DNA from: Escherichia phage ST4
DNA: 64,000 nt
Direction: 5' to 3' (one strand)
Sequence record: OM982646
Part shown: one piece after another, positions 24,456 through 31,019 of the stretch
Position numbering within the stretch: position 1 is the stretch's first letter
Layout: the number at the start of each line of letters is the position of its first letter
Translations under genes and position numbers: made by a program
The notes under the pieces: model-generated
What the model saw: only the letters and a program-made list of their open reading frames with translations
Told to the model about the DNA's origin: nothing
Database searches by the model: none

Positions 24456-24472
24456 AAGCTGCGGAGCAGCTT
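24456..24472 (-). promoter_or_regulatory. GGA-loop DNA hairpin, candidate vRNAP early promoter (7-bp stem)
   Basis: Plus-strand AAGCTGC-GGA-GCAGCTT in the 27-nt gap between two minus-strand genes; plus strand is the template for leftward transcription; UTR would be very short under an N4-like start rule, so less certain than the other three. Confidence 0.4.
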
Positions 24473-24822
24473 TAACTCCAATAGTTGTAAGCATCACCTA
24501 AGTGTTTACGCCATGCTTCCGGTAACAGCACGTTGCCAGTCACATTAATGAACTGGTATGGGTCTAGGTAGTCATTACTCATGACTTTGAAATCCCACTG
24601 TGGATTAGCAGATGCATAGGCAATAAAACCTTCAATGAAGCCATAAATAGCACCTTCTTTAATACGGTTACCATTGCCATCTCTTACTGGAATGGCAAAG
24701 CTATTACCATAATGACCATAGGCCATACCCCAACGAGCACCGTGCTTCTTATAGGCTAACTTGGCAGCAGCATTGGTATGCTGACCTAATGTGTTGGTAG
24801 TGAATACGAATATCTCTTTCAT
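24472..24822 (-). CDS. hypothetical early protein
   Basis: 116-aa ORF; Gly-rich segment GARWGMAYGHYGNSFAIP; family not recognised. Confidence 0.4.
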   Translation of the reverse strand: MKEIFVFTTNTLGQHTNAAAKLAYKKHGARWGMAYGHYGNSFAIPVRDGNGNRIKEGAIYGFIEGFIAYASANPQWDFKVMSNDYLDPYQFINVTGNVLLPEAWRKHLGDAYNYWS

Positions 24823-24825
24823 TAG

Positions 24826-25206
24826 TTACCCTTTTGGATTTTCTACAAAGTAGTTATACATAGCTCGTACGAGCTTCTCTTTAATAACCTCACCATGACA
24901 TGGCTTTGGATAGCAGAAGCACTGTAAGGCCAGACCTTTCTCGTCAATGGCTTTATTACCCAGACGATTAAGTTCATCCAGTACAACTGGATTACCTTTA
25001 TCAATCTGTTCTTGCAGCCAGACCTTATACTTAGCAATTACTTGCTCTCTGGTTCCATGTTTACCAATGACGAATGGATTGCCTAACGGTGAACCACGTC
25101 CAATATACTCACCGGATTTACCGTGATGTTTATTAACAATGATAATTGGACGTGCAGATACACCCAGCAAAGCATTGGTGTTATCACCTAATGGAATAGT
25201 TTTCAC
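24826..25206 (-). CDS. DUF4326-like protein (putative)
   Basis: Pattern RGSPLGNPF ... YKVWL ... CFCYPKPCHGEV resembles the DUF4326 signature. Confidence 0.35.
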   Translation of the reverse strand: MKTIPLGDNTNALLGVSARPIIIVNKHHGKSGEYIGRGSPLGNPFVIGKHGTREQVIAKYKVWLQEQIDKGNPVVLDELNRLGNKAIDEKGLALQCFCYPKPCHGEVIKEKLVRAMYNYFVENPKG

Positions 25207-25445
25207 GGTTTAAGTACCTCAATGGATGTAGTTACTTTGTATATAGAAGCTCCTTCTAATGCGTCTATTTTGTAAGCCATACCTCTTGTTAGCATTACTC
25301 CGTTCATTACTTTATTAACCTCTTCTAGGTTAGGTACGGAAAATGCTTCATTTAATACAGGAGTTGTATGCCAATCTATGTAATCATCGGGCATAGCTAT
25401 AAAATCATCTCCCTTTTTGAATACATAATATTCTTCATAGATCAT
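25203..25445 (-). CDS. hypothetical early protein
   Basis: 80-aa ORF, coupled starts and stops. Confidence 0.35.
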   Translation of the reverse strand: MIYEEYYVFKKGDDFIAMPDDYIDWHTTPVLNEAFSVPNLEEVNKVMNGVMLTRGMAYKIDALEGASIYKVTTSIEVLKP

Positions 25446-25756
25446 GGTTTTAGTACCTGGAATGCGAATACAGGACGTTTACTACGCCATTGGTTCATAG
25501 CCAGTTCACTAGCAGGAGAGCCATCATGTAAATCATATATGAATGTAATCATATACTCTGGTTCCTCTGGGAAGTTCTCTGTAGAGAATGGTAGACCTGC
25601 TTCCTTTAGTACAGAAACCAGTGGTGATTCTGGTTCACAGTAAATAATGAACTCTTCGTTGAATGCTTTACTAGTCTGAGATACATAATCAATATTACGC
25701 ATCATCTTATCGACGTCAGTAAAAGTATTATCATGTACTACTACAATATTATTCAT
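25442..25756 (-). CDS. hypothetical early protein
   Basis: 104-aa ORF, coupled. Confidence 0.35.
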   Translation of the reverse strand: MNNIVVVHDNTFTDVDKMMRNIDYVSQTSKAFNEEFIIYCEPESPLVSVLKEAGLPFSTENFPEEPEYMITFIYDLHDGSPASELAMNQWRSKRPVFAFQVLKP

Positions 25757-25935
25757 CTATATACCTTAAAGACTATTACGTCTTTTTCTGTTGATTCAAT
25801 AACTTTCATTTTATTTGAGGAATTGGCTTGTTTAAGTTCTTTCCTCATCTGTTCTAAAGTTGCATCATCTACATCTTTAAAACGAATGAATGCAATTTTT
25901 CCATCTTCATGGAATAAGGTTTTTGTTTTATTCAT
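25753..25935 (-). CDS. hypothetical early protein
   Basis: 60-aa ORF, coupled. Confidence 0.3.
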   Translation of the reverse strand: MNKTKTLFHEDGKIAFIRFKDVDDATLEQMRKELKQANSSNKMKVIESTEKDVIVFKVYR

Positions 25936-26213
25936 GGTAGTAAAACCTCACTTAGTGTAGCTTCAATTTCATTAATAGCTGGGGCAAATCTACGGATGAT
26001 ACCTATTTGTTCCTGCTTACTATTTTTATACTTAGGTGGTATTTTCCATATACCAGTCTTAGTATATTTAGGTTTATGGCTGAAACCAATTAGAGCAGAA
26101 CTCGAATGACCATGCATCATTGGATATGCTGCTACATATTTAACCCATATTGGGACTTCAATAGTTTGTCCCATATAGTTAAATGATTTAGTTACAGGGA
26201 ATGTAATAATCAC
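25932..26213 (-). CDS. hypothetical early protein
   Basis: 93-aa ORF, coupled. Confidence 0.35.
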   Translation of the reverse strand: MIITFPVTKSFNYMGQTIEVPIWVKYVAAYPMMHGHSSSALIGFSHKPKYTKTGIWKIPPKYKNSKQEQIGIIRRFAPAINEIEATLSEVLLP

Positions 26214-26431
26214 TTTTGGTATCCTTGTATATAGTTAATACGGCGAATACGCTGAGTAGATGCCTTAACAGCCATCTGTTGATTCTCTTCTTTGTGCTGA
26301 TTATTTAACAACTTATCCCATTCTTCCTGGTTCCGTTGTTTCTGTAATATACGACTACAACGCTTATGATTGGCAACTCCACGTCCTTTCTTACAGACTG
26401 GGCAAATACCATAATCGCTCGTGTACATCAT
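26210..26431 (-). CDS. hypothetical early protein, possible zinc ribbon
   Basis: 73 aa with CPVCKK...C and a basic C-terminal half. Confidence 0.35.
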   Translation of the reverse strand: MMYTSDYGICPVCKKGRGVANHKRCSRILQKQRNQEEWDKLLNNQHKEENQQMAVKASTQRIRRINYIQGYQK

Positions 26432-29521: not shown

Positions 29522-29560
29522 GCTTTAGTACCTGTACCGGATAGGGTGATGTGTTTAGTT

Positions 29561-29911
29561 TCATAGAGATGCCTTTGGATAAATGGTGCGTACTCTTTTA
29601 AAATCTTTATTAGGTCTACCATCTATAGTAAGTCCAACGAACCCTTCTTCTATCCTTGGTTCAAAGAACAAGAATGCAGATTCACCAGCGGGTATCTTTA
29701 TGGATTCTCCTGGATTAAGGATGGTTAACTTAGCTGGGCTATTTAGAAGAAGAATGGAGCCACGGGTACTATCTGCTAACTCGCCAGGTAGCATGAGCAT
29801 ATGACAGTCTTGCGGCAATAACCACTCAATAGCTTTAGTGACATTCCCAGAGTAAAAAGAAACTTCATCCGTATATTGATGTAGGAATAGCACTCTACTC
29901 ATTGGGTACAC
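29561..29911 (-). CDS. early paralog-family protein (member 2 of 6)
   Basis: Core LMLPGELADSTRGSILLLNSPAKLTILNPG aligns with member 1. Confidence 0.5.
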   Translation of the reverse strand: MYPMSRVLFLHQYTDEVSFYSGNVTKAIEWLLPQDCHMLMLPGELADSTRGSILLLNSPAKLTILNPGESIKIPAGESAFLFFEPRIEEGFVGLTIDGRPNKDFKRVRTIYPKASL

Positions 29912-30216
29912 TCGTCGCTAGATAAATATGAGGAAGGATAGAGGGTAATGAGTCTACCTGTAAGAGTAGTAGCTACCATAGGTTCACTGGAGGAATAGAT
30001 ATATACAGTGACATTCTCTGGAACTTCAATGGAAGCATCTATCTTAATAAAGGTAATAGGTACACCTAACATTAAACAGGTTCCGATGAACTCATCTGCT
30101 TTTTCACATTGTTCATAGTACATGGTCATGGGTTTACTTATTCCCAACCAAGGTGATTTACCTACCCCCAGATTAAGGGGACAGGTACTACGACTACTTA
30201 AACCGTAGAAGTGCAT
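29899..30216 (-). CDS. early paralog-family protein (member 3 of 6, divergent)
   Basis: Weaker match of CEKADEFIGTCLMLGVPITFIKID to the family core; same size and tandem position. Confidence 0.4.
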   Translation of the reverse strand: MHFYGLSSRSTCPLNLGVGKSPWLGISKPMTMYYEQCEKADEFIGTCLMLGVPITFIKIDASIEVPENVTVYIYSSSEPMVATTLTGRLITLYPSSYLSSDECTQ

Positions 30217-30219
30217 GAC

Positions 30220-30534
30220 TTACTTCCTTACGTAATAGTAACGGTATTCATCATTCTCATAACGGGTATTCCACTGGTATTCATCGGACACCATCATGAA
30301 AGGTAGAGCGTCATCTGCACTACTAACGGGGTAGATGGAAGGAGGAATAATACATACAACCTTACGGTCATTACCTACTAAGAAGAGTTGGCCCCTTACT
30401 TCATGGTAGTCCTCTAAGGTAGGAACTAGTATTACACGTTGGGAACTACTATCCATGACTTCTTCTAAAGTGAAGTCATTTGTGTACATGGGCGCCCTTT
30501 CAGCAAAACTGGGGATGGTCATTATGAATTTCAT
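30220..30534 (-). CDS. early paralog-family protein (member 4 of 6)
   Basis: Core QRVILVPTLEDYHEVRGQLFLVGN aligns with members 5 and 6. Confidence 0.5.
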   Translation of the reverse strand: MKFIMTIPSFAERAPMYTNDFTLEEVMDSSSQRVILVPTLEDYHEVRGQLFLVGNDRKVVCIIPPSIYPVSSADDALPFMMVSDEYQWNTRYENDEYRYYYVRK

Positions 30535-30898
30535 GGTTGATTCTCCTTCCTTTAGGAATAGGTCTGAAGTAAATGGAAAGTGTTTTATTAAAGACGTTAT
30601 GGCTAGCTATCAATTCCCAACCGTCTATCTTATAGAAGCGTACACAGGGGAAGAACTCATTGAATCCATCATAGCGGGTAAGATCATATACCTTTGGTTC
30701 AGTAAGTATCTCAGTGTTAAGCTGAAGGTTGGATAAGAAAAGAGAACCAATGACCTCATGGGATTCTTCACAGTCGGGTAGGAATACTGATTGCCATGGG
30801 GCAATGAACTTACTTACTGCTTCTGGTTCCCCCAGGAGATAGGGTTCTTGTTTATGCAGTACACCGGTAATATCAATATCAAAACAGTAGATGCTCAT
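30500..30898 (-). CDS. early paralog-family protein (member 5 of 6)
   Basis: Core QSVFLPDCEESHEVIGSLFLSN; ATG at 30896-30898 with GGAGG RBS. Confidence 0.5.
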   Translation of the reverse strand: MSIYCFDIDITGVLHKQEPYLLGEPEAVSKFIAPWQSVFLPDCEESHEVIGSLFLSNLQLNTEILTEPKVYDLTRYDGFNEFFPCVRFYKIDGWELIASHNVFNKTLSIYFRPIPKGRRINHEIHNDHPQFC

Positions 30899-31006
30899 AA
30901 TCGCATACCTCCAGAAAAAGAAATGGGGCAGAGCCTCTCGACCCTACCCCTTACCGTTTTCAATCACGGGTCAGTTCATCCCCCTAGGTACTTATGTACC
31001 GTTAGA

Positions 31007-31019
31007 CCTACGGAGTAGG
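31007..31019 (-). promoter_or_regulatory. GGA-loop DNA hairpin, candidate vRNAP early promoter (5-bp stem)
   Basis: Plus-strand CCTAC-GGA-GTAGG inside a 200-bp non-coding gap upstream of 30500..30898; position not anchored to an ORF boundary, may be off by 1-2 bp. Confidence 0.5.

Follow-up and report, generated by a model that had tools for sequence, protein, structure and literature searches.

Three GGA-loop hairpins of Escherichia phage ST4 as very probable orthologues of the phage N4 early promoters, with a fourth in a conserved structured RNA

A first-pass annotation of a 64,000-nt stretch of DNA from Escherichia phage ST4 (sequence record OM982646; the whole stretch is hereafter called the window) had marked four short hairpins with a GGA loop as probable single-strand promoters for the virion RNA polymerase (vRNAP), on the model of phage N4. 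Our analysis makes it very probable that three of these, named here by their first positions (29024, 28186, and 24456), are early promoters orthologous to P1, P2, and P3 of N4, and that the fourth (31007) is instead a helix of a conserved non-coding RNA. The hairpin-promoter reading was thus upheld for three of the hairpins by their sequence determinants, N4-like positions, and the polymerase encoded in the window, but not for 31007. The four hairpins are as follows:

29024..29038, minus strand: predicted P1-type vRNAP promoter, ACATGC-GGA-GCATGT on the plus (template) strand, transcription leftward
28186..28200, minus strand: predicted P2-type vRNAP promoter, AGACGC-GGA-GCGTCT on the template strand
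24456..24472, minus strand: predicted P3-type vRNAP promoter, AAGCTGC-GGA-GCAGCTT, 17/17 identical to N4 P3
31007..31019, minus strand: probably not a promoter; helix 3 (CCUAC/GUAGG) of a 141-nt structured element

Hairpin census and match to the N4 promoters

A scan of both strands of the window for 3-nt loops enclosed by a perfect stem of 5 bp or more gave 109 hairpins, four with a GGA loop on the plus strand and none on the minus strand. The sequences, coordinates, perfect 5-7 bp stems (7, 6, 6, and 5 bp for 24456, 28186, 29024, and 31007), and plus-strand GGA loops were all as the first-pass annotation had given them, and the whole-window search for stem-GGA-stem matches that it had proposed returned no further copies at this stem length and none on the non-template strand. 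All four hairpins lie between open reading frames (ORFs), in gaps that make up ~4% of the window and 9% of positions 21500-31400; they stand upstream of minus-strand genes, and the plus strand is the template for these leftward genes. Leaders with a Shine-Dalgarno (SD) site were present downstream as described, and the hairpins were distinct from the intrinsic terminators of the region, which have 8-11 bp stems, 4-nt loops, and U-tracts. For all four, the minimum-energy fold of the single-stranded DNA was the hairpin itself (-6.4, -6.9, -4.7, and -2.7 kcal/mol).

Chance expectation was estimated from 1000 dinucleotide shuffles of the window. The broad class (stem of at least 5 bp, GGA loop) had four members against 1.8 expected, and 10% of the shuffles reached four; this difference is not significant, and the presence of any GGA-loop hairpin was rejected as evidence. 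Only a narrower class proved significant, namely hairpins with the core GCGGAGC, of which there were three against 0.032 expected, or 0.002 when CC at +1/+2 was also counted, and none of the shuffles held more than one. These are 29024, 28186, and 24456, each with CC at +1/+2, and the heptamer GCGGAGC has just these three occurrences in 64 kb, each on the plus strand. Since 31007 reads ACGGAGT, it falls outside this class, and the earlier treatment of all four as one class can be kept for the three GCGGAGC hairpins but not for 31007, the broad-class count being no higher than chance.

To calibrate the scan, we ran it on the N4 genome (NC_008720), where it recovered that phage's own promoters at 90, 557, and 4546 (template-strand reading). 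They are GTTGC-GAA-GCAAC at 90-102, before gp1, the position of P1; AAGAAGC-GGA-GCTTCTT at 557-573, directly upstream of gp2, the position of P2; and AAGCTGC-GGA-GCAGCTT at 4546-4562, between gp14 and gp15, the position of P3. The role of P1-P3 as early promoters of N4 is reportedly documented in work by Haynes and Rothman-Denes in 1985, Glucksmann in 1992, Dai in 1998, Davydova in 2007, and Gleghorn in 2008. Sequence conservation in these promoters extends from -17 to +1, extrusion and stability require the loop-closing G:C pair along with the 5' G and 3' A of the loop, N4 vRNAP specifically recognises -11A/G, -10G, -8G, and +1C, and initiation takes place eight nucleotides downstream of -8 (PMC4496689). 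Among the residues involved, W129 stacks on -11G, K114 contacts -10G, R119 contacts -11G, and D901 and R904 contact -9C/-10G and -8G (PMC4496689). A template oligonucleotide of N4 P2 used for cryo-electron microscopy carries CCAAAAGAAGCGGAGCTTC (PMC13492108).

Every published sequence determinant was found in 29024, 28186, and 24456, i.e., -12A, -11G, -10G, -9C, -8G, and +1C/+2C. The loop, G(-10) purine(-11) A(-12) closed by C(-9):G(-13), reads C-GGA-G in all four hairpins of the window; however, the -8G contacted by R904 is present in the three and is A in 31007. In the three, +1C stands 11 nt from the loop centre with CC at +1/+2, giving an RNA start of GGA. They therefore resemble N4 P1-P3 in being template-strand hairpins with a 5-7 bp stem, a 3-nt G-purine-A loop, C:G closure, -8G, and +1C/+2C at 11-12 nt from the loop centre.

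The genomic setting also agrees. Positions 24000-32000 are 88-90% identical to coliphages of the genus Gamaleyavirus (G7C-like; Schitoviridae, Enquatrovirinae), e.g., IME11, PD205, and pSb-1, and the phage of the window is a G7C-like, close relative of N4. Its genes run leftward from ~31400 to 1 and rightward from 31562. The reverse complement of 29040-29123 aligns with the first 90 nt of N4 (TGG..GGGGCTACAC...), several Gamaleyavirus records (PhAPEC7, SP5M, U1G, and PD38) end at the equivalent of 29124, and terminal repeats are annotated at the same place in G7C and Mimir124. The window therefore appears to be circularly permuted, with the physical left genome end probably at about 29123-29124. 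The terminal repeat appears collapsed in this record, which has the left terminus inside it at about 29040-29124. Positions 29125-31561 would then be the right end of the genome and carry homologues of N4 gp70 (43%) and gp71 (27%) together with further small ORFs. Transcription from P1, P2, and P3 is predicted to start about 0.1, 0.94, and 4.7 kb from the inferred left end, and the N4 hairpins lie 0.09, 0.56, and 4.55 kb from the N4 left end. The two phages thus have these hairpins at matching genomic sites: ahead of gp1 at ~0.1 kb from the left end, ahead of gp2, and between the genes gp14 and gp15. The placement in the early region that had been claimed for all four holds for 29024, 28186, and 24456, which stand at the left end next to the gp1, gp2, and gp15 homologues, but not for 31007, because with the physical left end at ~29123-29124 this hairpin belongs to the right end.

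The P1 hairpin, about 105 nt from the inferred left end, has a predicted +1 at 29020 and an RNA start of GGACAUG, followed by a 38-nt leader with a GGAG SD ahead of the gp1 homologue. Its flanks (CCACCTTACACGTTACAC ... TTATGGACATGT) are homologous to those of N4 P1 at N4 90-102, the shared sequence being CCACCTT..ACACGTTACAC upstream and TTATGGACATGT downstream, and it differs from N4 in its loop (GGA vs GAA). The 5' end of the predicted P1 transcript has a small stem-loop, GGAC-AUGUC-GUCC (29008-29020, minus-strand RNA), with the N4 counterpart GGACA-UGU-UGUCC at the same point; this is possibly a 5'-end stabiliser. For P2, the predicted +1 is 28182 and the RNA start GGAUAUCC, and downstream there is a 68-aa ORF and then the gp2 homologue. 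This ORF is extra relative to N4, and P2 of the window stands ~0.94 kb from the end as compared with 0.57 kb in N4. P3 lies between the gp14 and gp15 homologues, as it does in N4, with a predicted +1 at 24453, an RNA start of GGAUAUGCAAUG, and a 77-aa ORF and the RNAPII subunit genes downstream.

The P3 leader differs from that of N4, owing to the following feature:

24211..24444, minus strand: 77-aa ORF (234 nt), inserted into the P3 leader directly after +2

In IME11, G7C, and N4, alignment showed the P3 hairpin followed by TTGGT(A/T)ATTAA..GGAGAATA..ATG of gp15, and a ATTAATTA-GGAGAATA-ATG(gp15) segment is retained downstream of the inserted ORF in the window. The insertion is common to the window and phage HK2 and is absent from IME11, G7C, and N4, and a comparison of the 77-aa ORF with PHROG gave no match. 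The leader left at 24456 is only 9 nt long because the ORF was inserted right after the P3 GG start. The first-pass annotation had suggested a different role for this hairpin on account of its short leader; given a hairpin that is exactly N4 P3 and an insertion that explains the leader, this suggestion falls away, and P3 is therefore expected to retain its role of transcribing the RNAPII genes.

The window also encodes the cognate enzyme:

54429..64000, plus strand, running off the window end: virion RNA polymerase gene, a 3205-codon open frame matching N4 vRNAP PDB structures

Its polymerase domain is 70% identical to that of N4, and eight of the nine promoter-contact residues (K114, R119, W129, K268, K849, K850, D901, and R904) are retained.

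Conservation among relatives and alternative readings of the three hairpins

For comparison we used 12 Gamaleyavirus genomes (13 loci) together with N4 and the window; at one locus (L010, K57alpha1.2), the annotated features did not match the homologous sequence, and the DNA alone was used. Each early region in this set held three to five template-strand GC-GGA-GC hairpins at the same three positions. As an unselected test, every GCGGAGC heptamer in the set was listed without any pairing requirement, and this census replaced the stem covariation from the hairpin scan as evidence. Of 46 heptamers, 45 formed stems of 4 bp or more, and in 44 the stem was 5 bp or longer. All 45 stemmed heptamers were on the template strand of early genes, 43 of them with CC at +1/+2, and the sole exception was a heptamer with a 3-bp stem in the late region of N4. 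The two loop-proximal stem pairs were invariant, whereas the outer pairs varied yet stayed paired (AGCTGC, AGACGC, AGATGC, AGAAGC, ACATGC, GTTGC, and GGTGC). In the GG at the RNA start, the second G was invariant, and the first was G in 25 of 26 sequences. The P1 hairpin is the same in 10 genomes, P2 occurs at the same place in relatives with an AGACGC, AGATGC, or AGAAGC stem, and for all three hairpins the C-GGA-G loop and closure are invariant across relatives, whereas the loop of 31007 is not conserved.

Some relatives carry extra hairpins that are absent from the window, at 503-515 and 796-808 in G7C (locus L003) and at equivalent sites in loci L007, L013, and L014. One such hairpin, AACGC-GGA-GCGTT, has CG rather than CC at +2/+1; another, (TAA)GCTGT-GGA-ACAGC(TTA), lies before gp1.2 and is closed by a T:A pair. 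Within the genus, early promoters number from 3 to 5.

Short palindromes are common, as the 109 hairpins with a 3-nt loop in the window attest, and the three could in principle be chance palindromes or sites for a dimeric DNA-binding protein. We regard the probability of this as close to negligible: chance predicts 0.03 hairpins of the specific class where three were observed, the strand bias is strict and the placement intergenic, and an outer stem that varies freely while its pairing is kept is the opposite of what a sequence-specific dimer site would show. A second alternative is that the GC-GGA-GC hairpins act as RNA stem-loops with a UCC loop, serving as signals for processing, stability, or termination. 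Their palindromic stems would fold in a transcript as well, read-through RNA would contain the P2 and P3 hairpins, and 28186 was flagged as terminator-like on the plus strand, where a T-run follows it. This reading nevertheless appears exceedingly unlikely, since the invariant features are an asymmetric GGA loop on the template, -8G, and a GG start that keeps a constant spacing of 11 nt, and an RNA hairpin requires none of these. Moreover, P1 and the genome end are ~100 nt apart, there is no promoter upstream from which the P1 hairpin could be transcribed, none of the three is followed by a U-tract in the RNA sense, and all three are identical or homologous to experimentally proven DNA promoters of N4. 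Orthology to the N4 early promoters remains the reading that we favour for these hairpins.

The fourth hairpin and the gp70-gp71 spacer

Hairpin 31007 reads CCTAC-GGA-GTAGG on the template, with A at -8, T at +1, and G at +2, and is situated about 70 kb from the genome end that enters the cell first, in the spacer between the gp70 and gp71 homologues. This 201-nt spacer is 91-99% identical across 55 Gamaleyavirus records, as compared with 82-88% in the flanking genes, and contains the following feature:

30915..31055, minus strand: conserved 141-nt structured element with a three-way junction, a small hairpin, and an intrinsic terminator

In the RNAalifold structure, the 31007 hairpin is one arm of the three-way junction, which is followed by the small hairpin and the terminator (30925-30950, then the U-tract AUUUCUUUUU), directly before the SD and ATG of gp71. 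The spacer structure (30915-31100, minus strand) also includes a 5' hairpin, ACCGCC...GGCGGT, and within the element GGCUCCUUU forms an unpaired, invariant stretch. A covariance model of the element (R1) gathered 21 full-length homologues, in whose alignment 37 pairs were paired in 98.4% of cells; this alignment was fitted to the model, by which the structure is somewhat favoured. Changes on both sides were found in 13 pairs, where shuffles gave 3.9 ± 1.2 such pairs and slid controls 0-2, and four of these 13 fall among the five pairs of the 31007 hairpin. The fold is stronger in the sense RNA (z = -3.3) than in the antisense (z = -1.3), and several G-U pairs form in the sense of the gp70/gp71 transcript.

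The loop of 31007 behaves differently from its stem. In the RNA sense, it is TCC in about half of the homologues and CTA in the other half. In phiG17, the loop is CCA with a compensatory stem change (CCAAC/GTTGG); Jgk1 has a TTCG loop on a different stem (CCTGA/TCAGG), an IMG/VR contig has a TACT loop on that same stem, and the equivalent hairpin of Moo19 has an 8-nt loop on a longer stem.

The element is conserved in Gamaleyavirus, Moovirus, and related contigs. The gp70-gp71 spacer of N4 is similar in length and has a homologous first hairpin and terminator, but it matches the model only weakly (21.7 bits). Six loci, mostly GenBank duplicates, came from a search for gp71 homologues in viral contigs, and nine from a strict pattern search for the RNA element; a looser pattern in metagenomes gave mostly chance matches, with eight true ones from close relatives. 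Searches of Rfam with the whole window at gathering thresholds gave no match, and permissive searches with 30800-31600 gave only chance-level ones (mir-279, E = 0.18; fluoride aptamer, E = 0.98; His leader, E = 3.7; snoU49, E = 6.9). Coding was considered as an explanation for the spacer (plus-strand ORF 30791-31018; a PHANOTATE call in Mimir124) and rejected because 1-nt indels between clades break the frame. Pairing of GGCUCCUUU with phage SD regions was dropped as well, AAAGGAGCC having 11 matches where 12.3 were expected.

The alternative that all four hairpins are vRNAP promoters, with the right-end copy driving the gp71 cluster or priming replication, draws on the fact that in the window, G7C, and Moonfish 31007 does have a 5-bp stem, a GGA loop, and C:G closure on the template strand of the downstream genes. 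We consider it very unlikely. N4 vRNAP specifically recognises -8G and +1C, and the template of 31007 carries A and T at these positions; roughly half of the homologues have TAG as their template loop, and others have TGG or a loop of 4 or 8 nt, while the stem covaries; and a transcript begun at 31002 would meet the intrinsic terminator after about 55-90 nt. A review of N4 argues that hairpin promoters dependent on supercoiling are limited to the left end, the first to enter the cell, and 31007 is a right-end site. A generic GGA hairpin is, in addition, expected 1.8 times per window by chance. The promoter role that the first-pass annotation had given to 31007 is therefore not sustained. From these comparisons we conclude that the 31007 helix is probably under selection as a component of an RNA and that the GGA of the other strand is presumably incidental.

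As to function, we put at about even the chances that 31007 is a helix of an undescribed 141-nt structured RNA that could be either a ligand- or factor-sensing attenuator for the right-end gene cluster or a small RNA derived from a 3' untranslated region (3'UTR). The element resembles terminator-ended leader RNAs of the riboswitch or attenuator type and 3'UTR-derived small RNAs in that a multi-helix domain leads straight into an intrinsic terminator, with the SD of the next gene after it, and in its invariant unpaired sequence (GGCUCCUUU). However, no Rfam family matches it, and the resemblance is one of layout only.

Several points weigh against our overall interpretation. In the vRNAP of the window, K267 is replaced by N (57990-57992; N4 mini-vRNAP numbering), a difference from N4 at one of the two lysines reported there to melt the base of the 7-bp promoter stem. 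RNA initiated at P3 would offer the 77-aa ORF just GGA as an SD. The count of stem covariation in relatives was partly circular because the scan demanded at least 4 paired positions. A literature search for transcript 5' ends or in vitro transcription in Gamaleyavirus found none, and promoter function therefore rests on homology to N4. Lastly, since 31007 has the GGA loop and C:G closure in the window, G7C, and Moonfish, weak promoter activity within that subclade is, strictly speaking, still conceivable.

Early transcription units and relation to other systems

The genes and terminators downstream of the predicted promoters are as follows:

28658..28981, minus strand: gp1 homologue, 66% identity to N4 gp1; phrog_5020
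28629-28648: terminator-like hairpin after gp1
27435..27911, minus strand: gp2 homologue, 68% identity to N4 gp2
27406..27425, minus strand: intrinsic terminator after gp2, GGACTACC-TTCG-GGTAGTCC, then a U-tract
23372..24190, minus strand: RNAPII small subunit (gp15 homologue), 65% identity to N4 gp15; phrog_2166
21570..22787, minus strand: RNAPII large subunit (gp16 homologue), 69% identity to N4 gp16
21538-21563: intrinsic terminator after gp16, closing the early region

In N4, gp1 is an early gene whose product is a cofactor of middle transcription. The gp14 homologue has 46% identity to N4 gp14. Two further features were seen among these genes. Beyond the gp2 terminator, in a 141-nt gap and upstream of ORF 27105-27293, there is a long hairpin without a U-tract at 27336-27371 (minus strand; CTTTCTAGGGGCTCT-AGGCGA-AGAGTCCCTAGAAAG, 15 pairs including one G-T), which could be a processing site or an element of a middle promoter. 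Between the genes for the RNAPII subunits, there is a 193-aa ORF (22789-23370, minus strand) where N4 has no gene; the annotation of G7C gives its equivalent there (gene 15.1) as an HNH homing endonuclease.

By analogy with N4, from which the mechanism as a whole is drawn, host single-stranded DNA-binding protein would melt the non-template arm, while the template-strand hairpin would persist, its stability coming from a C:G-closed GGA loop that may form a mini-hairpin of the GCGNAGC type with a sheared G:A pair. The injected vRNAP would bind through stacking on -11G and its contact residues, with the specificity loop contacting -10G, -9C, and -8G. With GTP as the first nucleotide, placed opposite the CC that stands 11 and 12 nt away from the centre of the loop, it would produce leftward GGA transcripts from 29020, 28182, and 24453, and their products, i.e., gp1, gp2, and the two RNAPII subunits, would then run middle transcription.

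Comparable promoters have been described in other phages, and predicting them is routine in genome papers on N4-like phages. For the Klebsiella N4-like phage KP8, promoters P1-P4 were predicted, ACGTTGCTCCGCAACCTATGGA and three others (PMC6950046, Table 1). They share with the window a non-template motif of stem-GC TCC GC-stem followed by T(A/T)TGG, a copy before the RNAPII genes, and sites at 89, 962, 1225, and 5965 from the left end, comparable to the distances given above; they differ in belonging to another genus and in having four predicted sites, and are predictions only, as in the window (PMC6950046). Papers on Pectobacterium phages contain the same kind of prediction (PMC6027278). No published promoter predictions for G7C-like phages were found in a search that did not take in the G7C genome paper or Dai and Rothman-Denes 1998. 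In the Pseudomonas phage LUZ7, hairpin promoters were confirmed by mapping start sites with ONT-cappable-seq (PMC9163698). This relative of N4 likewise has a stem of at least 4 bp, a conserved 3-nt loop, and a preferred G start, but its starts lie 13-14 nt from the hairpin centre rather than 11 nt as in the window and N4, and its nine early starts have different sequences (PMC9163698). The promoter core GCGGAGC is also the d(GCGNAGC) DNA mini-hairpin motif (PMC13037366) with N = G, a match in keeping with how unusually stable the template-strand hairpin of N4 is; that motif, however, comes from physical chemistry and is no biological family, and the stems in the window have 3-5 further pairs.

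As a discovery, the three promoters are ordinary because they are orthologous to the well-established early promoters of N4. What is gained for annotation is three early transcription units with predicted starts at 29020, 28182, and 24453, a help to phage engineering and to the interpretation of transcriptomes, but no new biological question arises from it. More interesting are two by-products, the ORF inserted exactly at the P3 transcript start and the covarying gp70-gp71 RNA that is in no database; this unannotated structured RNA with its terminator is the only part of the locus that might repay further work. The results also suggest that the N4 promoter code, i.e., GC-GGA-GC with a start 11 nt away and RNA beginning with GG, is essentially unchanged in Gamaleyavirus.

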